Part shown: piece by piece, positions 2,349 to 63,901 of the stretch
Numbering within the stretch: position 1 is the stretch's first letter
Layout of the letters: every line of letters begins with the position of its first letter
Assembly: GCA_021821305.1 (NCBI GenBank)
Contig: JAKACP010000001.1
Location: forward strand, 196,934 to 260,933
Length of the DNA stretch: 64,000 nt
Source of the DNA: a bacterium
GTDB lineage: Bacteria; Patescibacteriota; Minisyncoccia; Moranbacterales; UBA1568
Reading direction: 5' to 3'
Notes under the pieces: generated by a model
What the model was told of the DNA's origin: nothing
Database searches by the model: none
The model's input: only the letters and a program-made list of their open reading frames with translations
Program-made: the position numbers and the translations under genes

Positions 2349-2951
2349 ATGAAAATCGGAATCGATTTCGATGACGTGTTGTTTCATTTCGTACCGGCGT
2401 TCCTGCTGTATCACAATCGCATGCACGGGACGGACTTTTCGAAGGACGACGTATGGTCGTACCGTTTTTGGGAGGTGTTCGGTATCGCGAGAGACGAGGC
2501 GCTCAACCGCGTGTTCGCGTTCCTCGGTTCTCCGGAAGCCGAAGCACTGATACCGGTCGAGGGATCCCACAAGGGAATCGCTTCGCTCGCGAGAGATCAC
2601 GAGCTTCACATCATCACCGCACGGCAGGAATGGCTCGCCGAGGTGACGCATGGATTGCTGGAGCGGCACTTTCCGCCGGTCTTCTCCGGAGTGTACTTCG
2701 CCAATCATTTCTCCGACGATCGATCGGGATTGAGCAAGGGCGTGATCTGTGACCGGCTCGGTATCGATGTCTTCATCGACGATGCGCCTGCCAACGTGCT
2801 CGAGAGCGTACGCGCCGGAAGGAAGATCCTCCTCCTCGACGCCCCATGGAACACGTTCATGGATCCGATCGAGCATATCTCGCGTGTCCGCTCCTGGGAC
2901 GAGATCGTCGGAGCGATCGCGACCTTCGATTCCGAACGATCGGAACGATGA
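2349..2951 (+). CDS. HAD-superfamily 5'(3')-deoxyribonucleotidase-like protein
   Basis: N-terminal MKIGIDFDDVL contains the DxDxV HAD motif, with an NT5C-like layout. Confidence 0.65.
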   Translation: MKIGIDFDDVLFHFVPAFLLYHNRMHGTDFSKDDVWSYRFWEVFGIARDEALNRVFAFLGSPEAEALIPVEGSHKGIASLARDHELHIITARQEWLAEVTHGLLERHFPPVFSGVYFANHFSDDRSGLSKGVICDRLGIDVFIDDAPANVLESVRAGRKILLLDAPWNTFMDPIEHISRVRSWDEIVGAIATFDSERSER

Positions 2952-2952
2952 T

Positions 2953-2989
2953 TCCCGCCGCCTGTCATTCCAGGCGGCTTTTTTTTGCA
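2953..2989 (+). terminator. Rho-independent terminator
   Basis: Stem gccgcctg/caggcggc with tcattc loop, then tttttttt. Confidence 0.7.
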
Positions 2990-2990
2990 A

Positions 2991-3180
2991 GAGCCTGCCC
3001 ACTCCCTCACCGCAAAGATGAAAAAGGAAAAATCTCTTCTGCTTGTCGGCTAAAATTCCATCATTTCGGCTGCAAATCTCGAAAAGCTTGTCGAAATATC
3101 TCGATATTCCTCCTCACTTTTCAAAATTTTCGCTCAAAATTATGAAATTTTATACTCGACATGAGAGAGTGGTCAGGCTC
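2991..3180. repeat. Family-1 structured intergenic element, copy A (~190 bp)
   Basis: Ends gagcctgcccactccctca / tgagagagtggtcaggctc are complementary at 17 of 19 positions. Internal boxes tcaccgc, gcttgtcgg, tttcggctgcaaatc and ctcgacatgaga are shared with copies at 13439 and 55111. Confidence 0.6.
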
Positions 3181-3181
3181 T

Positions 3182-3213
3182 AAACAAAAACCTCTCCGAA
3201 CAGGAGAGGTTTC
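3182..3213 (-). terminator. Rho-independent terminator of the RRM gene
   Basis: On the minus strand: stem aacctctcc/ggagaggtt followed by tttttgttt. Confidence 0.6.
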
Positions 3214-3235
3214 GTTTCGCTGATGACCGGGGCGC

Positions 3236-5430: not shown

Positions 5431-7224
5431 ATGGATTCAACCGCGGTACAGGATATCAAGGCGAGGCTCAATATCGTCGACGTGGTCGGCGGGTACGTGA
5501 GGCTGACCAAATCGGGTACGCACTGGAAGGCGTGCTGTCCGTTTCACAACGAGAAGTCGCCGTCGTTCATGGTGAACGAGGAACGGCAGATCTTCCATTG
5601 TTTCGGCTGTGGCAAGGGCGGGGACATGTTCTCGTTCGTCGAGGAGATCGAAGGCGTGGACTTCCGCGAGGCGCTCCGGCTCCTCGCCGAGAAGGCGGGC
5701 GTGGAATTGCCGAAATACCGCAAGGCGTCGGTGTTCGCGCAAGGCGGCGTCGAGGAACCCGACCGGACCAAGGAAATCCTCGAGCTCTCGACCAAGTTCT
5801 TCGAGACCCAGCTTTGGAGCGGGGAAGGCACGAAGAGCGCGCTTCCCTATCTCCGCGACCGCGGACTCTCGGACGAGAGCATACGGACCTTCCGTCTCGG
5901 ATACGCGCCGGAAGGATGGCGGCACCTCCTCGATTTCCTCGTCGGCCGCGGCTATCGCGAGGAAGAGCTCGAGCGGGCCGGTCTCGTCATCAAGAAGGAT
6001 GGCGGCGGGCACTACGACCGCTTCCGCGACCGCATCATGTTCCCTATCGGCGATGTTGTCGGGCGGATCATCGGCTATTCCGCGCGCGTCGCGCCCGGAG
6101 GGGATGAAAGCCAGGCCAAATACATAAATACGCCCGAGACGCCCGTCTATCACAAGAGCCGCGCGCTCTATGGCATCTATCAGGCCAAGCAGGCGATGAA
6201 GGAGAAAGGATTCTCGGTCCTCGTCGAGGGGAACATGGATGTCATCGCCTGCCATCAGGCGGATATCCGTAATACGGTCGCCGTATCGGGGACGGCGCTC
6301 ACCGTCGAACAGCTCGATATGCTCAAGCGCTACGGAAACGGGATACGGCTGTTTTTCGACATGGATGGCGCGGGACAGGCCGCTTCGTGGAAGAGCTCGC
6401 TCCTCGCACTCGAAAAGGAGATGGAAGTGTCGATCATCGCGCTTCCGCATGGCAAGGATGCGGCCGACGCGGCCAAGGAGGACCCGGAGTCGCTCCGAGA
6501 GGCGGCGACACACGCGGTCCCGGTCGCGCAGTACTTCCTCGACAAGCTCCGAGCCGCCAATGACGCCAAAACACCCGCCGGAAAGCGCCGTATCGCCGAA
6601 GGATTCGCCCCCCTTCTGGCCTCCATGCGGAACCGGATCGAGCACGCCCATTGGCGCAAGGAACTGGCGCAGACGCTGGGTGTGGAAGAAAAAGTGCTTT
6701 CGGATGTACTACAGAGCGAAATCCTTGAAAAGCGGGAAATCGTCCCAAAAGGAGAGAAACAGGCACCCGAACCCAGCCGTCCAACATTCGTGACGCGCTC
6801 CGGCGTACTCCGGGATCGGATTGTGGGGCTGCTTCTCCTCGACGGGTCGCTCATGGACAAGGAATCCGTGGACGAACCGATAGGGGGATTCCTGTCAGGT
6901 GACGCGTTTTTCGGGATCGTATCAGAAAAAGGGGAGGGCGAGGCGTTTTCGCGAATTGATGGCGAAGCGCAGAAGCGTCGTGCGGCAGAATTGATGTTCG
7001 AGGCGGAAAAGCTCTTTGAGGGGAACGAGGCCGACGGTGAATTCGACCGAAACGAGCGCAAAACGAAGGTATTCCGGGAACTTCTCCGTGACCTTGCCAT
7101 CGAACTGCGCCGGGACGAACGGACAAAGATCGCTCAGGCGCTCGAGGAGGCAAGGAAGTCCGGTGACAAATCACTCGAACGCGAGCTCATGGAGCAGTTT
7201 CGGGAGATCTCGCGGGAAAATTGA
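5431..7224 (+). CDS. dnaG: DNA primase
   Basis: Zinc-finger CCPFHNEKSPSF...CFGCG, a TOPRIM region (EGNMDV), and the conserved dnaG-rpoD gene order. Confidence 0.9.
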   Translation: MDSTAVQDIKARLNIVDVVGGYVRLTKSGTHWKACCPFHNEKSPSFMVNEERQIFHCFGCGKGGDMFSFVEEIEGVDFREALRLLAEKAGVELPKYRKASVFAQGGVEEPDRTKEILELSTKFFETQLWSGEGTKSALPYLRDRGLSDESIRTFRLGYAPEGWRHLLDFLVGRGYREEELERAGLVIKKDGGGHYDRFRDRIMFPIGDVVGRIIGYSARVAPGGDESQAKYINTPETPVYHKSRALYGIYQAKQAMKEKGFSVLVEGNMDVIACHQADIRNTVAVSGTALTVEQLDMLKRYGNGIRLFFDMDGAGQAASWKSSLLALEKEMEVSIIALPHGKDAADAAKEDPESLREAATHAVPVAQYFLDKLRAANDAKTPAGKRRIAEGFAPLLASMRNRIEHAHWRKELAQTLGVEEKVLSDVLQSEILEKREIVPKGEKQAPEPSRPTFVTRSGVLRDRIVGLLLLDGSLMDKESVDEPIGGFLSGDAFFGIVSEKGEGEAFSRIDGEAQKRRAAELMFEAEKLFEGNEADGEFDRNERKTKVFRELLRDLAIELRRDERTKIAQALEEARKSGDKSLERELMEQFREISREN

Positions 7225-7364: not shown

Positions 7365-8774
7365 ATGAAGAAAAAGCCGATCCAGAAGAAGACCAAGAAG
7401 GATATCCGCAGGAAACCGGCCGCCAAGAAACCGGCCGCGAAGAAATCCGCGCCGAAAAAGAAGCCGGTGGTCAGGAAACCTGCTCCGAAGAAGTCCGTGA
7501 AGAAGGCCGTGGCCGGAAAAAAGAAGGTCGCACCGAAGGCGTCGAAAAAGAAAGGCTCCAAGCCCGCGGCCAAGAAACCGGCCGCGAAGAAACCGACCCA
7601 GAAAAAATCACAGCCGAAAAAGACCGCCCGGAAACCGGAATCCGCCGCGAAGAAGGCCAAGGCGGCAATCATGGAGGGAAAGCAGGAGAGCGCGTTCGCC
7701 GAGCTCATCACCCGCGGCAAACAGCGCGGATTCGTGACGGAAGATGAGATCATCCACATCCTCCCGGACGTCGAGACCGATCTCGACGCGCTCGAGCGGC
7801 TCTACGGCGAGCTTGAGGAGGCCGGCGTGCGCGTGGCCGGATCCGACGAGATACTCAAGGTCGAGACCGACCGTATCGCCGATGATTTCGGGAAAAAGGA
7901 AGCCGCCGCCAAGAAGCCGTCGCGTCGTGCGGAGTCGGATGAGGACACCTCGGACCTCGTCCAGATGTACCTTCGCGAGATCGGCCGCGTCGCGCTCCTC
8001 ACCGGCGAGGAGGAAGTGAAGTACGCCAAGCTCATCGAGAAGGGCGATATGGTCGCCAAACAGCGGCTCACCGAGGCCAACCTCCGGCTCGTCGTCTCCA
8101 TCGCCAAGAAGTACGTCGGCCGCTCGCACAACCTCTCCCTCCTCGACCTCATCCAGGAGGGCAATCTCGGACTCTTCCGCGCGGTGGAGAAGTTCGACTA
8201 CCGCAAGGGATACAAGTTCTCGACCTACGCGACGTGGTGGATCCGTCAGGCGATCACCCGCGCGCTCGCCGATCAGTCCCGCACCATCCGTATCCCGGTG
8301 CACATGGTTGAGACCATCAACAAGTATTCCCAGGTGACGCGTCGCCTCGTCCAGGAGCTCGGCCGCGAGCCGCTTCCCGAGGAGATCGCCGCGGAAATGG
8401 GGATGGAGGTCGACAAGGTCCGCCACATCCAGAAGATCTCGCAGGAGACCGTCTCGCTCGAGACCTCCGTCGGCGACTCGGACGACGATTCGGTGCTCGG
8501 CGACTTCATCGAGGACACCGAGACTGTCATGCCGCACCAGTCGGCCGCCCGCAAGCTCCTCAAGGAGCATATCGGGGCTATCCTCGACGAGCTGACCCCG
8601 CGCGAGCAGAAGATCCTCAAGATCCGCTTCGGACTCGAGGACGGTATCACGCATACCCTCGAGGAGGTCGGACAGGAATTCGGCGTGACCCGCGAGCGTA
8701 TCCGCCAGATCGAGGCCAAGGCCCTCGAGAAGATCCGCGAGCACGACCACGTCAAGAAGCTCCGACACTACTAA
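7365..8774 (+). CDS. rpoD: RNA polymerase sigma factor RpoD with an N-terminal lysine-rich (KKPAAKK) extension
   Basis: Regions 1.2 through 4 are present: [20 protein letters not shown] and a 4.2 HTH ([20 protein letters not shown]). The N-terminal ~100 aa is a KKPAAKK-repeat tail. Confidence 0.9.
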
Positions 8775-12509: not shown

Positions 12510-13442
12510 ATGAACGAAGGGAAACATCCGGCGCTCGTCGTCGAACATGTGAAGAAAACCTACGCATCCGGGAAGGAGGCCCTGAAGGAGGTCTCGCTCG
12601 TCATCCCGGAGGGGGATTTTTTCGCGTTTCTCGGCCCCAACGGCGCCGGCAAGACGACCATCATCGGTATCGTCACGGGCATCGTCGACAAGTCGGCCGG
12701 GACCGTCCGGGTGTTCGGGTACGACATCGACCGCGAGCCGGAAAAGGCCAAGGCCTGTATCGGCGTCGTCCCACAGGAAATCAATTTCAATATCTTCGAA
12801 ACCCCGCTCGATATCATCGTGAATCAGGCCGGGTACTATGGGATCTCACGGAAAGAAGCCATACCGCGGGCCGAATCGCTTCTGCGGAGCCTCGGTATCT
12901 TCGACAAGAAGGACCAGGAATCCCGCGCGCTTTCGGGCGGGATGAAACGCCGGCTCATGATCGCCCGCGCGCTCATCCACAAGCCCCGATTGCTCATCCT
13001 CGACGAGCCGACGGCGGGCGTGGATGTGGACCTGCGCCGGAGCATGTGGGATTTCCTCCGATCGCTGACCGAGAAGGAGGGGATCACCATACTCCTCACG
13101 ACGCACTACCTCGAGGAAGCCGAACAGCTCTGCAAGCACGTCGCCATCATCCACCAAGGATCGATCATCGAGTCCGGATCGATGAAGGATATTCTCGGGA
13201 AGATCAACACCGACTCCTTCCTCATCACGCTCCGGTCCCAGGTGACGCCGGAAATCGTCGAAGCGCTCGCCGCGTATCGCGCGAAGAAGATCGACGAGAA
13301 GACGATCGAGATCGAAACGGACGACGGCCGCGGACTCAACGACGCGATCCTCCTCCTCAACGGACGGGGATTCCCCATCGGGGACATCCGGAACAAATCC
13401 GGCCGGCTCGAGGAAGTCTTCGTGAGGCTGACCGGTAAGTAA
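12510..13442 (+). CDS. ABC transporter ATP-binding protein
   Basis: Walker A GPNGAGKTT, signature LSGGMKRR, Walker B LLILDEPT. Confidence 0.85.
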   Translation: MNEGKHPALVVEHVKKTYASGKEALKEVSLVIPEGDFFAFLGPNGAGKTTIIGIVTGIVDKSAGTVRVFGYDIDREPEKAKACIGVVPQEINFNIFETPLDIIVNQAGYYGISRKEAIPRAESLLRSLGIFDKKDQESRALSGGMKRRLMIARALIHKPRLLILDEPTAGVDVDLRRSMWDFLRSLTEKEGITILLTTHYLEEAEQLCKHVAIIHQGSIIESGSMKDILGKINTDSFLITLRSQVTPEIVEALAAYRAKKIDEKTIEIETDDGRGLNDAILLLNGRGFPIGDIRNKSGRLEEVFVRLTGK

Positions 13443-13622
13443 CTGTCCGATATCTCACCGCCCTGAATAAAAGAAAAAACCATGCTTGTCTCATAAAACG
13501 TCCGGATCTCGGCTGAAAACCTCTCAAAGCTCGTCGGATTATCATGATAGTCCTTCTCCCTTTTCAAGGTTTTCATCTCGACATCCGAACATTTTCTCGA
13601 GACATGAGATATCGGACAGTTA
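13439..13622. repeat. Family-1 structured intergenic element, copy B (184 bp) between ABC ATPase and permease genes
   Basis: Perfect 19-bp terminal complementarity: gtaactgtccgatatctca / tgagatatcggacagttac. Conserved boxes tcaccgc, gcttgtctc, tcggctgaaaacc and ctcgagacatgaga. The left stem overlaps the upstream stop codon. Confidence 0.65.
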
Positions 13623-13635
13623 CTAAGGAAAACCT

Positions 13636-14412
13636 ATGAACGCGAAAAAACTCTGGATATCGTTCATGACCATCGTGCGCAAGGACGTGCTCCGTATCTT
13701 CAAGATATGGCCGCAGACGTTCCTGCCGTCCGTCGTGACGTCGGTCCTCTATTTCCTCGTGTTCGGCACCGTGCTCGGCGAGCAGATCGGCGACGTGGAC
13801 GGGTTTTCCTACCTGCAGTTCGTGGTGCCGGGGCTCGTCATGCTCGCGGTCGTGACGAATTCGTTCTCCGACGTCGCGACCGTCTTTTTCGTCTCGAAGT
13901 TCTTTTCGCGCAATATCGACGAGATCCTCGTCTCACCGACGCCACCCTCGGTCATCATCGCCGGGTTCGTCGGGGGAGGTATCGTCCGCGGCGTCCTGGT
14001 GGGAGCGCTCGTGCTCCTCGTCTCGGCGTTCTTCGTCCCGATCTCGTTCGCATACCCTTCGGTGGTACTGCTTTTCCTCGTCCTCTCGAGCCTCGTCTTC
14101 TCGCTCGCCGGACTCGTGAACGGCATCTACGCGAAGAGCTTCGACGGCATCTCCATCGTCCCGACCTTCGTGTTGACGCCGCTCGTGTATCTCGGCGGCG
14201 TGTTCTTCTCGATCGAGGCGCTGCCGGGATTCTGGCGTGATCTCGCGGCGGCCAATCCGATCTTCTATCTCATAAACGGGTTCCGATACGGACTGCTCGG
14301 CCTTTCGGACGTGCCGATCGCGACCTCTATCGCCGTCTTGGTCGGGCTCGCGGCGGCGCTCATCGCAGCCAACTGGTACTTCATCCGCACCGGGCTCGGG
14401 TTGCGGCAATAG
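13636..14412 (+). CDS. ABC-2 family transporter permease
   Basis: Six-TM ABC-2 permease topology immediately after the ATPase. Confidence 0.8.
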   Translation: MNAKKLWISFMTIVRKDVLRIFKIWPQTFLPSVVTSVLYFLVFGTVLGEQIGDVDGFSYLQFVVPGLVMLAVVTNSFSDVATVFFVSKFFSRNIDEILVSPTPPSVIIAGFVGGGIVRGVLVGALVLLVSAFFVPISFAYPSVVLLFLVLSSLVFSLAGLVNGIYAKSFDGISIVPTFVLTPLVYLGGVFFSIEALPGFWRDLAAANPIFYLINGFRYGLLGLSDVPIATSIAVLVGLAAALIAANWYFIRTGLGLRQ

Positions 14413-20383: not shown

Positions 20384-21007
20384 ATGCCGCTGGTTCGAAA
20401 CGACAAAAAAATCGAAGATACGAGCCATCGTAGTCCCGATACGGACTCGGCTCTCTATCTGGTCGTCCTGCTCTTGTCATCGGTCTTTTTCGGACTTCTG
20501 TTCTCGGCGTCCTCGCGGATACTGACGTACGAGATCGAAAGTGCCGATTTCGTCGGCTCGACTCCGAAATTCAAGACGACATTCGAACGCTCACTCGATA
20601 AGATGGTCAAAGGACATCCGATATCGGACATGACCCCGTATCTGGCACAGCAGAACGCGGTGACCGCGTCCTATCTCGTCGCCATCGCCAAGCATGAGAG
20701 CAACTGGGGAAAATATTCGCCGAAAATGGATGGGAAAGAATGCTACAACTACTGGGGATACCGGGGACAGACCGAAAAGGTCACCCGAAGCGGGTACTCG
20801 TGCTTCGACAGTCCGAGACAGGCGGTCTCGGTGGTCGGGAGGCGGCTCAACTATCTCATCTGGGATCTGCGTCTCGATACGCCTGAGGAACTCCTCGTAT
20901 GGAAATGCGGCTCGACCTGCGCCGGGCATGATCAGGGCGACGTGAATCGCTGGGCGCGCAATGTGGGCGTATACTCGAAAAAGGTCGAGAATGAAGCCCG
21001 ATTCTGA
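20384..21007 (+). CDS. Membrane-anchored protein with a conserved Cys-containing domain of unknown function (paralog of 62819..63901)
   Basis: Shares AIAKxESNWG...CxNYWGYRG...CF(D/N)S...VG(R/K)RL...WKCGSxCAGH with the ORF at the end of the window. Confidence 0.5.
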   Translation: MPLVRNDKKIEDTSHRSPDTDSALYLVVLLLSSVFFGLLFSASSRILTYEIESADFVGSTPKFKTTFERSLDKMVKGHPISDMTPYLAQQNAVTASYLVAIAKHESNWGKYSPKMDGKECYNYWGYRGQTEKVTRSGYSCFDSPRQAVSVVGRRLNYLIWDLRLDTPEELLVWKCGSTCAGHDQGDVNRWARNVGVYSKKVENEARF

Positions 21008-23854: not shown

Positions 23855-23992
23855 GAAAGCACAGGTCACAGAACACAAAACGCCAAACAAGACACAAAAT
23901 ATGAAATACAAACATGAAACCAAACATCCGCTTGTGCTTTGAGAATTGTGTTTTGTTTGGATTTTTGTGCTTTCGAACTTTGTGTTTTTAGC
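23855..23992. repeat. Family-2 AT-rich A/C-rich palindromic element, copy D, between the nrdD body and the glycyl-radical ORF
   Basis: Arms cacaaaacgccaaacaagacacaaaat / attgtgttttgtttggatttttgtg. Similar to copies at 45301 and 48456. Confidence 0.6.
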
Positions 23993-45093: not shown

Positions 45094-45300
45094 ATGGTAG
45101 AAAAAAAGCAATCATTGTCGGAATCGATACGGAAACTCGAAGGCATCGTGGAATGGTTCGAGGGTCAGGAGGAAATCGACGTCGAAAAGGGTCTCGAGAA
45201 ATTCAAGGAGGGCGCATCGCTCGTGAAGTCCTCGCGTGCGCGCCTCAAGGAAATCGAGAACGAGTTCCGGGAAGTGGAGAAGACGCTCGACGAAGCATAG
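45094..45300 (+). CDS. xseB: Exodeoxyribonuclease VII small subunit
   Basis: 68-aa helical protein (SLSESIRKLEGIVEWFE) immediately after xseA. Confidence 0.8.
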   Translation: MVEKKQSLSESIRKLEGIVEWFEGQEEIDVEKGLEKFKEGASLVKSSRARLKEIENEFREVEKTLDEA

Positions 45301-45446
45301 CTTCGAAAACACGGTTTTCAAAACACAAAAAGCCAAACAAAACACGAAGCAAATACTGAAAGCACAAACCTCGCAATCTCGAAGTTTGTGCTTTGTATTT
45401 TGTGATTTGTTTGGACTTTGTGCTCTGTGCTTTGTGTTTTTTTGAT
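45301..45446. repeat. Family-2 AT-rich A/C-rich palindromic element, copy E
   Basis: Arms caaaacacaaaaagccaaacaaaacacgaagc / gtttgtgctttgtattttgtgatttgtttggactttgtgct. It starts at the xseB stop codon. Confidence 0.6.
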
Positions 45447-48143: not shown

Positions 48144-48455
48144 CTACTCGAATCCCAACTGCGCCTTGGCGGCCTCGGTCATCTTGGATGGGTCCCACGG
48201 GGGATCGAAGGTGATCTCGGTCTTCACGTCCTCGATCTCGGGGATGGCCATGAGCGCCTCTTCGATCTGGGCTTCGATCACCCCGAAGAGCGGACAGCCC
48301 ATGGTGGTGAGCGTCATCGTGACCTTGGCGCGGCCGGACTTGGTCACGGAGACGCCGTAGACGAGGCCGAGATCCACGATCGAGATGCCGAGCTCGGGAT
48401 CGAGCACGGTTTTCAGTGCCGTTTCTATTTTCGTTTGGAGCTTTTGATCCTTCAT
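48144..48455 (-). CDS. DUF59/MIP18-family Fe-S assembly protein (SufT-like)
   Basis: ALKTVLDPELGISIVDLGLVY...TTMGCPL pattern. Confidence 0.7.
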   Translation of the reverse strand: MKDQKLQTKIETALKTVLDPELGISIVDLGLVYGVSVTKSGRAKVTMTLTTMGCPLFGVIEAQIEEALMAIPEIEDVKTEITFDPPWDPSKMTEAAKAQLGFE

Positions 48456-48575
48456 AAAAGAAAAACACAAATTTCAAAAAACAAAAACCAAACAAAGCAC
48501 AAATCCTAAAACACAAGCGGTTTGTAGACTGTGTTTTGTTTGGCTTTTTGTGTACCGTGTTTTGTGCTTTTGAAA
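48456..48575. repeat. Family-2 AT-rich A/C-rich palindromic element, copy F
   Basis: Arms aaacacaaatttcaaaaaacaaaaaccaaacaaagcac / gtgttttgtttggctttttgtgtaccgtgttttgtgc. It fits exactly between the ferredoxin stop and the DUF59 start. Confidence 0.6.
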
Positions 48576-54996: not shown

Positions 54997-55110
54997 AGTA
55001 TGAAAGTGGACCTATTTAGTCCGAATTTATGGTACCAAACAGGCACAAACGTGTCAATGAGCGCTTCAAACCCTTGAGTTTTTGCGGAAACTTCTGTACC
55101 TTCCTTCTAA

Positions 55111-55296
55111 GAGTCTGTTCAACATCTCACCGCTTTACATATAAAGGAAACCCTCTCGCTTGTCGTCCAATACTTCAGAATTTCGGCTGCAAATCATTTA
55201 TCACTCGTCGGCTTATCGCGATAGGCCTTCTTGCGATGCATGATGTTCGCTCGAAATTCTGAAGTACTGGCTCGACATGAGATATTGAACAGACTC
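55111..55296. repeat. Family-1 structured intergenic element, copy C (186 bp) between rrf2 and dus
   Basis: Ends gagtctgttcaacatctca / tgagatattgaacagactc are complementary at 18 of 19 positions. Boxes tcaccgc, gcttgtcg, tttcggctgcaaatc, ctcgtcgg and ctcgacatgaga. Confidence 0.65.
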
Positions 55297-55298
55297 TT

Positions 55299-56276
55299 AT
55301 GGATATACACATGGGTTTTTGGAAAAAACTGCGAAAACCGTTCCTAGTGCTCGCACCGCTGGACGATGTCACGGACGCGGCGTTCCGCCGTATCATCGTG
55401 AAATACGGCAGGCCCGATGTCGTCTGGACGGAATTCGTCTCGGCGGACGGGCTCATGCACCCGGAGGGCAGGAAGGCGATACTTCCCAAACTCTGGTTCG
55501 ATGAGAGCGAGCGGCCGATCGTCGCGCAGCTTTTTTCGGCGTTTCCGGAAAAGATGCGCGGGGCGGCGAAGCTGGTGGCCGAGCTCGGGTTCGACGGGAT
55601 CGACATCAATATGGGCTGTCCGGACAAGGCGATCAACAAGCAGGGAGCGGGTGCGGCCTGCATACGTGATTTCGGGTTGGCGCAGGATCTCATCCGGAGC
55701 GCGAAGGCGGGCATCCATGACGCAGGGAAGGATATTCCCGTTTCCGTGAAGACACGCCTCGGGTTCGATACCGATATACTCGAGGAGTGGCTGCCGGCGC
55801 TTCTCGAAGCCGGACCGGCCGTCATCACGCTCCATGCCCGGACGAGGAAGGAGATGTCCGATGTGCCGGCCCACTGGGACCGCGTCGCCCGCGCGGTCGA
55901 GATCGCGGCCGGGTCCGGGACGCTCATCATAGGGAACGGCGATGTCCGCGACCTCGCGCATGCGCGCGTACTCGCCGCCGAAACCGGAGCCGACGGCGTC
56001 ATGCTGGGGCGCGCCATATTCGGAAATCCGTGGCTTTTCGCCGAGGATGGGGAGGATGTTCCCATGACGGAGCGGCTCCGCGTCATGGTCGAACACACGA
56101 GGCTCTACGAGGAACTCTTCACCGGAGTGAAAAGCTTCGATCTCATGAGGAAACACTATCATGCCTACGCGCACGGGTTCCCGGGTGCGAAGGAACTGCG
56201 GATCCGGCTCATGGATTGTCGTGATGCCCGCTCCGTGGAGGAAACGGTGGCCGAGTTTCTTGGCAGGCATGCCTGA
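55299..56276 (+). CDS. dus: tRNA-dihydrouridine synthase
   Basis: Dus family pattern (LAPLDDVTD...DINMGCP...). Confidence 0.8.
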   Translation: MDIHMGFWKKLRKPFLVLAPLDDVTDAAFRRIIVKYGRPDVVWTEFVSADGLMHPEGRKAILPKLWFDESERPIVAQLFSAFPEKMRGAAKLVAELGFDGIDINMGCPDKAINKQGAGAACIRDFGLAQDLIRSAKAGIHDAGKDIPVSVKTRLGFDTDILEEWLPALLEAGPAVITLHARTRKEMSDVPAHWDRVARAVEIAAGSGTLIIGNGDVRDLAHARVLAAETGADGVMLGRAIFGNPWLFAEDGEDVPMTERLRVMVEHTRLYEELFTGVKSFDLMRKHYHAYAHGFPGAKELRIRLMDCRDARSVEETVAEFLGRHA

Positions 56277-62818: not shown

Positions 62819-63901
62819 ATGCATTCACGGGTGTTCCCCTTGAGGGAACAGCGGACCAATACCATAGACGGCATCGCGCCACCGACACGGACAAATCGAT
62901 CGGTGGCGAAACGCGCTTCCGACCGATCGCCCGATTCCTTCGCGGCGACGGTGTTTTCACGCGGAAAGCGATCGTCGGTGGTCGTCTTCGCGAAGGACGG
63001 CTATGTGTATCCGGCACGGGCCATCGATATCCTCGGCGAGCGCCCGCTTTTCCTTTCATCGACGGGCATGGTCGACGGACTGCACAAGAAGGGCATCGTG
63101 ATCCCGGCCGCACATATCCGGAAACCGGCGTTGTTCGTGGAACCCAGCCGCGAGGCGTTCGCGGCCGTGGAACGGAGCTTCCGGAATCTCGGTGAAAACG
63201 TGGCCGCCGGAGTTTCCGGATTCCGTCTCGGATTGTCGCCGTCGCGTGCGGCATACGCGCCGCTTGTCGGTGCCATGGCGCTCGGCATGGTTTCCGCGCT
63301 CCTGCTCGAACATTCCTTCGGCGGGGGAGTCAAAGCGGAGGAGGCCCGCATCGTCTATGTGGAACGACCGGCGGAGGGAGAACGTGTTCTCGGGGCCGGA
63401 TCCGATGCGTCGGATCTCCTCGATACGGAAGCGATCCTTTCCGATCTCGCGATCGAGGATCCGAGCAAGAAGGAATTCGAGGAGCGCGTCCGGAACATGG
63501 TGAAGGGATACCCGATCGAGGACATGATCCCCTATATCGTCGAACAGGACCGGACGGTCGCGATGTTCCTCGTCGCCATCGCCAAAAAGGAAAGCAACTG
63601 GGGTCGCCGGATCCCGGTCCTCGATGGACAGGATTGTTTCAACTATTGGGGATATCGCGGGATACGGAAAATGATGGGCACGGGCGGACATACCTGCTTC
63701 AATAGCCGCGAGGATGCCGTCGATACCGTCGGAAAACGTCTCGACACGCTTATCAACAAGCACGATCTCGACACGCCGGCGGACCTCATCCTCTGGAAGT
63801 GCGGTTCCTCGTGCGCCGGGCACAGTCCGTACAGCGTGAAGAAGTGGATTTCCGATGTCGATCTCTACTATCAGAAGCTCAACAAGGAAGGCGACGCATA
63901 G
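62819..63901 (+). CDS. Protein with a conserved Cys-containing domain of unknown function (paralog of 20384..21007)
   Basis: The C-terminal ~150 aa align with 20384..21007 (AIAKKESNWG, CFNYWGYRG, WKCGSSCAGH). The true start is uncertain. Confidence 0.45.
   Translation: MHSRVFPLREQRTNTIDGIAPPTRTNRSVAKRASDRSPDSFAATVFSRGKRSSVVVFAKDGYVYPARAIDILGERPLFLSSTGMVDGLHKKGIVIPAAHIRKPALFVEPSREAFAAVERSFRNLGENVAAGVSGFRLGLSPSRAAYAPLVGAMALGMVSALLLEHSFGGGVKAEEARIVYVERPAEGERVLGAGSDASDLLDTEAILSDLAIEDPSKKEFEERVRNMVKGYPIEDMIPYIVEQDRTVAMFLVAIAKKESNWGRRIPVLDGQDCFNYWGYRGIRKMMGTGGHTCFNSREDAVDTVGKRLDTLINKHDLDTPADLILWKCGSSCAGHSPYSVKKWISDVDLYYQKLNKEGDA

Follow-up and report, generated by a model that had tools for sequence, protein, structure and literature searches.

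A probable miniature transposable element of the Tourist/IS5 kind in Candidatus Moranbacteria

Introduction

Genomes of the candidate phyla radiation (CPR), or Patescibacteria, are tiny and are usually described as poor in mobile DNA. Within a stretch of 64,000 nucleotides from a Moranbacterales genome (GenBank assembly GCA_021821305.1, contig JAKACP010000001.1, positions 196,934 to 260,933; hereafter the window), the segment at positions 2991–3180 is very probably one copy, here called copy A, of a non-autonomous DNA transposon. Such a MITE (miniature inverted-repeat transposable element), ~185–195 base pairs (bp) long, would be specific to the CPR lineage Candidatus Moranbacteria. The element is present in many copies at many non-homologous sites, is small and without coding capacity, bears terminal inverted repeats (TIRs), and inserts at T-W-A trinucleotides, preferably in the context C-TWA-G, duplicating 3 bp at sites that are unoccupied in relatives. 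All of these are features expected of a MITE. The family is previously undescribed. Its duplication and target make it Tourist/IS5-like, and it belongs to the ordinary kind of selfish DNA, with a hairpin shape that is unusually well preserved. A literature search found no paper linking MITEs to CPR or Patescibacteria.

Target preference and duplication

With the element bounded as G...C and three bases read on each side, its flanks form a 3-bp duplication of the form T-W-A that is identical at 20 of 46 loci, compared to none of 47 in a shifted control. These 46 loci hold the 47 unique sequences collected overall. Copy A's own locus fell out at de-duplication and is absent from the statistics that rest on 42 to 45 copies (the stop-codon count, the orientation relative to the abutting gene, the G·U versus A·C counts, the private changes, the bulge z scores, the target logo, and the identities), while an alignment of 24 sequences includes it. 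Where both flanks read TTA or TAA, the two sides are the same in 19 pairs and different in 3. This is a direct duplication rather than an extension of the inverted repeats, because an extension would pair TTA at one end with TAA at the opposite end. The target logo carries a C at position −4 in 16 of 36 sites and a G at +4 in an equal number (16/36) around TWA, giving C-TWA-G. Compared with one another, the flanks of the 31 copies from genomes and the window show no similarity in either DNA or protein, and these copies therefore occupy independent insertion sites.

A 3-bp TWA duplication in a palindromic target is also what membership of the IS5 and PIF-Harbinger groups leads one to expect. 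Elements of both groups generate 3-bp duplications (PMC4122938), and mPing, a MITE of the Tourist type, goes almost exclusively into TTA/TAA, accepts TCA and TGA as well, and leaves its sites by precise excision (PMC4561436). By this analogy, a TTA/TAA-restricted 3-bp duplication in a palindromic target points to mobilization by a trans-acting DDE transposase of IS5 / PIF-Harbinger affinity. As with Tourist-type MITEs, this enzyme would cut TWA with a stagger of 3 nucleotides (nt).

Empty sites in related genomes

A clean view of an insertion is offered by copy B, a second window copy located at 13439–13623 (13436–13626 with its duplication) between the genes of an ABC ATPase and a permease. 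It has a GTAAC-type end, TIRs that match at 20 of 20 positions, and a perfect TAA/TAA duplication. Four relatives, with ABC ATPases that are 94, 88, 84, and 82% identical, lack the element, and there a 4-nt overlap joins the ATPase gene to the permease gene. In alignment, the relatives read ...CAG TAA GGAAAACCTATG... and the window reads ...TAA(GTAACTG...CAGTTAC)TAA GGAAAACCTATG, with the element in parentheses. The insertion cost the ATPase its last 4 codons together with the 4-nt overlap with the permease gene, and the in-frame stop of the truncated ATPase is now supplied by copy B's own end (G-TAA-C). The permease retains its original AAGGAAAA ribosome-binding site just 3′ of the copy (window 13436–13640).

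Copy A resides in the spacer between the genes for an NT5C-family 5′-nucleotidase and an RRM protein. The window and five contigs of the same species share a spacer length of 284 nt, compared to 89–102 nt in three relatives (L038–L040; NT5C 87, 66, and 61% identical) that keep the intrinsic terminators of both genes, the RRM one with loop variation. The NT5C terminator (2957–2986, plus strand) consists of a stem at 2957–2978 followed by T8. The RRM terminator (3182–3210, minus strand; −18.8 kcal/mol, z −3.9) has its stem at 3190–3210 and its U-run at 3182–3189. Both lie outside the element. In L038, the closest of the three relatives (NT5C 87%), TTTTTTTTGCAAAAAAACC stands between the terminators, where the window has TTTTTTTTG-CAA-(element)-TAA-ACAAAAACC. 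The original prediction, which had been made from the letters of the window and had placed the element between two convergent terminators, proposed comparison with syntenic loci as a way of recognizing an insertion. Both terminators are real and are conserved in the three relatives; with the NT5C–RRM spacer free of the element in relatives and the copy B site empty in four, the comparison supports a selfish insertion.

The most distant of these relatives, L040 (NT5C 61%), reads GAACAGTTAC, TAA, and ACAAAAACC in succession and thus preserves, at the same junction as copy A, a solo right TIR, 10 nt long, from a GTAAC-type copy. The sole free TWA between the terminators has therefore either been used repeatedly, or was occupied anciently and then vacated. 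A further solo end occurs in L040 at 7821–7845, where TAA and then the left end GAGCCTGTCCAAAAGCTCAT follow directly on the stop of a LytR_C gene. The L040 relics (5604–5705 and 7821–7845) are both remains of lost copies.

Architecture of the window copies

Direct reading bore out the predicted coordinates of copy A, its end pair, and its two sister copies starting at 13439 and 55111. Copy A spans 190 bp and is AT-rich, with ~41% GC in a window and genome of ~59% GC. Its left TIR gagcctgcccactccctca (2991–3009, plus strand), a GAGCC-type end, is complementary to the right TIR tgagagagtggtcaggctc (3162–3180, plus strand) at 17 of 19 positions, with mismatches at positions 8 and 15. The target-site duplication, read directly, is degenerate, with CAA on the left (2988–2990) and TAA on the right (3181–3183), the latter overlapping the U-run of the RRM terminator. 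Inward from the left TIR follow the junction box CTCACCGC (3006–3013, plus strand), unchanged across the three window copies, and a variable A-rich segment (3014–3041, plus strand). This segment is present in the left arm only and forms an asymmetric bulge of 20–31 nt, U-rich on the minus strand, and is poorly conserved (mean pairwise identity 0.44). A proposal that this side bulge is a conserved third hairpin was rejected, its mean z being −0.5. The left arm of the inner stems (3042–3095, plus strand) carries the GCTTGTC, TCGGCTG, and CTTGTCG boxes and contributes to helices 2–5, which covary. It leads to the apical palindrome aTATC-tc-GATAt (3096–3107), the tip of the hairpin, from which the right arm (3108–3161, plus strand) returns and closes with the GACATGAGA box (3158–3166). 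At the tip, each of the 24 aligned copies has TATC and GATA unchanged, a count with ascertainment bias since these bases belonged to the search pattern, and the two central bases vary freely.

The third copy, copy C (55111–55296, or 55108–55299 with its flanks), has TIRs that match at 21 of 22 positions, with TAA and TTA as its flanks, the right one of which overlaps a Dus gene at its ATG. Copies A, B, and C all share one orientation. The conserved internal boxes that had been noted earlier occur in all three, namely CTCACCGC, GCTTGTC, TCGGCTG, CTYGTCG, TATC-NN-GATA, and GACATGAGA, and the composite pattern CTCACCGC..CTTGTC..TCGGCTG matches only these three places in the 64 kb, with 0.00 matches expected from shuffles.

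Copy A looks like an older, decaying insertion, given its two TIR mismatches, its degenerate CAA/TAA duplication, and many wobble pairs (11 G·U in the minus-strand fold); copy B, in comparison, is perfect in its TIRs and its duplication. It is fixed in a single orientation in the window and the five same-species contigs, with one polymorphism, a T to C change that converts a G·U pair to G-C. Copy A is probably without host function, and its position appears to be the least harmful spot available; nothing suggests a function for it.

Distribution of the family

An exact core pattern retrieved 28 loci from a species-representative (GTDB) genome collection and 26 further loci from metagenomes, with no match in viral contigs. 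Several matches can share one genome, as do 7 in CAZIBB01. All informative titles among the genome matches name Candidatus Moranbacteria/Moraniibacteriota or the "Parcubacteria group", apart from some metagenome-assembled genomes labeled Bdellovibrionales. The window's own proteins match Patescibacteria/Moranbacteria-like proteins. The assemblies titled "uncultured Bdellovibrionales" that carry the element are L003, L004, L007–L011, L014, L015, L017, L020, L021, L023, L024, L026, and L028, and their labels are probably wrong. A profile search of the collected sequence added just a few extra or truncated copies. The element found no blastn match in plasmid and phage collections, and two TIR 19-mer patterns searched against viral contigs gave 4 matches, all of them chance occurrences in coding sequence without a partner end or core.

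Copy lengths range from 181 to 211 bp across the family. In variant subfamilies (L055:1416–1619, also in L047, and L063:8445–8678), the central core is the same and the outer arms are quite different (TAGAACCCATCTCAAAAAT... and CTAGAACCAGTTTCAGCGAAAA...). Some copies (L014:2899–3147, L017:1635–1838, L055:1416–1619, and L061:6392–6633) contain nested GC-rich micro-hairpins of ~20–40 nt, such as CCCTGCC...GGCAGGG and GACGGGGCGTCC...GGAACGCCTCGCGTC, which look as if a very small palindromic element of a separate kind inserts into the AT-rich MITE.

Hairpin conservation and strand asymmetry

Nearly the entire element is an imperfect palindrome that folds into one long rod ending in the TATC-NN-GATA tip. 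Folded as RNA, copy A reaches −54.9 kcal/mol (z −5.3) on the plus strand and −84.2 kcal/mol (z −9.7) on the minus strand, relative to shuffles. Conserved purine-rich internal loops interrupt the rod, with GUGAGGAGG opposite CCGACGAGC on the minus strand. Across the 24 aligned copies, 97.0% of cells are paired, compared to 84.4% in shuffles and 30–47% in slid controls, and changes on both sides of a pair are found at 36 of 65 pairs, inner helices included, compared to 18.6 expected from shuffles. The outermost helix 1 (alignment columns 1–23 with 204–224) is 96.9% paired in the same copies and has compensatory changes at 14 of its 20 pairs. Some of this covariation stems from a few subfamily founders with GAGCC-, GTAAC-, GTATC-, and GAACC-type arms. 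Matched changes in the TIRs could reflect both ends co-adapting to different transposases, and the covarying inner helices are unlikely to be transposase sites. Their pattern suggests either selection for the hairpin or correction of one arm by the other, through template switching of the kind possible in quasi-palindromes. The core is more alike among copies than the ends (identity 0.80 vs. 0.67), a contrast that is unusable because every copy was retrieved by an exact core pattern and is thus subject to ascertainment bias.

The two strands are not equivalent. The minus orientation folds better in 24 of 25 copies (mean −81.9 vs. −69.1 kcal/mol), and on the window minus strand G·U pairs outnumber A·C 1×1 mismatches by 234 to 41. 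An approximate tree-aware count reduces these to 91 G·U and 34 A·C origins, a ~2.7-fold difference. Changes private to single copies, on the other hand, are symmetric, with 13 G·U and 19 A·C. It would fit this pattern if resident copies decayed neutrally while propagating lineages passed through a filter on one strand, always of the same polarity. Mutation biased by strand, or sampling, could instead account for the asymmetry.

These features of the hairpin belong to a set of observations that weigh against a MITE moved by a DDE transposase. Transposition of that kind does not by itself explain the compensatory pairing of the inner stems, nor does it explain why one strand prefers G·U over A·C. 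The terminal 10 nt vary by subfamily (GAGCC.., GTAAC.., GTATC.., GAACC..), which is unusual for ends recognized at their tips by one transposase, and copy A's own duplication is imperfect. An autonomous partner is also missing from the sequence searched: no matching TIR pair lies ~1 kb apart or around a gene in 506 kb of collected loci, where a scan for TIR-like sequences gave only a truncated copy (L004:2877) and a solo TIR (L040:7824). No transposase was recognized by Pfam among 10 atypical window open reading frames tested, and none was present among the genes called in L029–L040; the viral contigs likewise yielded no autonomous element.

In a different account, the element is mobile and the form under selection is a single strand of defined polarity. 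This could be a rod-like minus-strand RNA of ~190 nt with a regulatory or decoy role, or one that is processed, or alternatively a single-stranded DNA hairpin intermediate. Pairing in excess of shuffles with two-sided changes at over half of the pairs, better folding of the minus orientation in all copies but one, and the surplus of G·U over A·C, in raw counts and in origins, are all in its favor, and the symmetric private changes fit a filter that acts on propagating lineages and not on resident copies. Against it, no conserved promoter able to produce the full hairpin is apparent. A scan of the consensus gave two minus-strand promoter-like sites, CTGACC-18-TAAAAT and TTGAAA-18-GATATT, and no promoter-like site is conserved family-wide. 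The second, the only recurrent one, is built from the conserved TTGAAA and the tip palindrome and lies inside the hairpin; a proper −10 box is found in some subfamilies only, and most subfamilies read GATAAC there. The original prediction had suggested a promoter of the element's own at a tatact-like box near 3150. The TATACT at 3151–3156 is confined to copy A, and since the other two copies read TTCTCG or GGCTCG at this position, it is not a feature of the family.

Orientation tells a similar story. It is random with respect to the abutting gene (10 vs. 13) and to both neighbors (13 vs. 17 and 13 vs. 14), which counts against a delivered promoter or a co-transcribed RNA, and a transcript of copy B would be antisense within an operon. 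No Rfam family matched the element: just two tRNAs reached the gathering score in the window, and with the limit relaxed to E ≤ 5 the best match within 2940–3230 had an E value of 0.75, far below its gathering score. The hallmarks of an expressed small-RNA gene, a conserved promoter and terminator of its own and a consistent orientation, were not found, and the idea of an expressed element implicit in the earlier reading thereby loses its footing. The insertions are also polymorphic and hence dispensable. A few subfamily founders may explain much of the covariation, and strand-biased mutation could mimic the G·U excess. Rod-like non-coding RNAs such as 6S RNA do resemble the element in size (~190 nt), in their hairpin with internal loops, and in their covarying stems. 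Unlike them, the Moranbacteria element is multi-copy (three divergent copies in 64 kb), flanked by duplications, polymorphic in its insertions, and without an Rfam match or a conserved promoter or terminator. On balance, we consider it unlikely that a strand-specific single strand is the selected form. There is likewise a small chance that spreading lineages have been filtered for the minus-strand hairpin, either as a folded single-stranded DNA or RNA intermediate or as a ~190-nt rod-like RNA acting in trans with its GUGAGGAGG / CCGACGAGC loops. Subfamily structure, mutation bias, or the core-anchored collection of copies may have produced the signals behind such a filter.

No open reading frame is conserved across copies. 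A central ATG exists only where the tip reads TATC-AT-GATA. The conserved CATGTC box also contains an ATG, but the short frame starting from it has a peptide sequence that is not conserved. A candidate small reading frame behind a GGAGG box was rejected, its ATG falling in the freely varying NN of TATC-NN-GATA.

Copies at gene ends

In 20 of 45 copies, the junction contains the end of a frame of 80 codons or more. As a rough control, the share of TAA triplets in these loci that close a frame of this length is 6.7%. The stop codon forms in several ways: from the duplicated TAA, from TA joined to the element's first G (TAG), or from the TAA inside a GTAAC-type end. By re-creating stops in this manner (TA followed by G, or G-TAA-C), the element's ends allow a few codons to be clipped without killing the gene, as happened with the ABC ATPase at copy B.

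This preference for gene ends invites the suggestion that the host has recruited the element as a cis-acting device, be it a bidirectional terminator, a hairpin that stabilizes mRNA 3′ ends, or an insulator. Congruent with such a role, the hairpin is strong on both strands, and several of the copies are situated between convergent genes (e.g., L010 and L018). Yet copy A is flanked by canonical terminators that relatives possess without the element, no U-tract follows the hairpin, and copy B splits a translationally coupled ATPase–permease pair, where a terminator would do harm. Adjacency to stop codons is moreover expected from a TWA target and purifying selection in a GC-rich, gene-dense genome, and recruitment in cis is very unlikely. 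A MITE with this target would, in such a genome, meet TWA chiefly where genes stop and in the spacers that hold terminators, and insertions elsewhere would not survive. The location of copy A between terminators, and the many copies that abut or supply stops, would then follow from where tolerated TWA targets are mostly to be found.

Comparison with known systems

The closest likeness is to Tourist-like MITEs such as mPing and mPIF. These are also small, non-coding, and AT-rich, with TIRs and insertion near genes, and they share the 3-bp duplication limited to TTA/TAA with occasional TCA/TGA, the palindromic extended target C-TWA-G, and clean empty sites consistent with precise excision. The end GAGCCTGTT... 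presumably recalls the GG/GAGCC...GTT ends of the Tourist type. Tourist-like MITEs are eukaryotic and mobilized by PIF/Harbinger, whereas the host here is a CPR bacterium, no transposase or Myb-like partner was found in the sequence examined, the terminal 10 nt are subfamily-specific, and the full-length hairpin is kept by compensatory change.

Among bacterial elements, the IS1031 group, with 3-bp TNA duplications and GAG ends, would match GAGCC-type copies like copy A. More broadly, the IS5 family (IS1031, ISL2, and IS427 groups) and MITEs derived from it are alike in being bacterial, of the DDE type, related to PIF/Harbinger, and associated with 3-bp duplications (PMC4122938). In contrast to these, no insertion sequence with the ends of the Moranbacteria element occurs in the collected loci, and the GTAAC and GTATC subfamilies lack the GAG start. 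Neither is the element an obvious internal-deletion derivative of an insertion sequence, because its two halves are complementary over ~75 nt, well beyond the tips.

Correia elements of Neisseria, the enterobacterial ERIC/IRU sequences, and the Rickettsia palindromic elements (RPEs) are likewise multi-copy palindromes of 100–200 bp in or next to genes, which, on co-transcription, form long hairpins in the RNA. Those of the Correia type duplicate TA and can carry promoters. The Moranbacteria element has no sequence relation to any of them, and differs in its CPR host, in duplicating a 3-bp TWA and not TA or nothing, and in the absence of RPE-like evidence for in-frame insertion and of a conserved outward promoter.

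Elements moved as folded DNA offer another comparison. According to this alternative, the family would be a single-strand transposon derivative, a palindrome-associated transposable element (PATE) of the IS200/IS605 type, or an attC-like site as in integrons, moved by an HUH or tyrosine recombinase that reads the folded strand. The retention of structure while sequence varies and the strand-specific asymmetry are shared with such systems. Those, however, operate without target duplication, while in the Moranbacteria family the duplication extends to the middle base of TWA, which varies, and the ends are true TIRs instead of subterminal hairpins. Neither end has a fixed tetranucleotide cleavage motif, and direct reading revealed no R′/R″ (GTTRRRY) boxes, making this origin highly improbable. 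Scarcely credible is an invertible promoter switch, in which ~150 bp between inverted repeats are flipped by a site-specific invertase: the 19–22-bp inverted repeats do enclose a short segment with promoter-like hexamers, yet the palindrome spans the whole element and not just its ends, duplications and empty sites are present, no invertase gene is nearby, and copy A keeps one orientation in the window and all five same-species contigs, albeit a small sample.

Other features of the window

The window contains several other repeats. A perfect 57-nt tandem duplication (2189–2245 equals 2246–2302) has its first unit starting inside the 3′ end of a tRNA-Ser (2120–2205) and consequently repeats the 3′ part of the tRNA; it may be the att-site scar of an integrated element, or the result of recent slippage. 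A second repeat family (45300–45445, 48455–48575, and 23938–23969) consists of long intergenic hairpins unrelated in sequence to the MITE, in which an A/C-rich arm (..CACAAAAAGCCAAACAAAACAC..) faces a T/G-rich arm (..GTGATTTGTTTGGACTTTGTG..). Two 110-nt direct repeats (20600–20709 and 63494–63603), ~43 kb apart, are 71% identical. Lastly, a run of 15-nt repeats (AAGAAACCGGCCGCG and variants) at 7394–7638, inside the sigma-70 gene (7365–8774), codes for an N-terminal extension, rich in lysine, proline, and alanine, on the primary sigma factor.

Implications

For annotation, copies of the element are to be masked as repeats, and not recorded as small-RNA genes or terminators; at the same time, the family is a ready marker for strain-level typing by presence or absence. 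If the strand-specific constraint on the hairpin is true, it would reveal an unrecognized step in the life of bacterial MITEs, in the form of a single-stranded intermediate or a functional RNA. Finally, the repeated insertion of a Tourist-like MITE across Moranbacteria would mean that this lineage has seen active DDE-type transposition.

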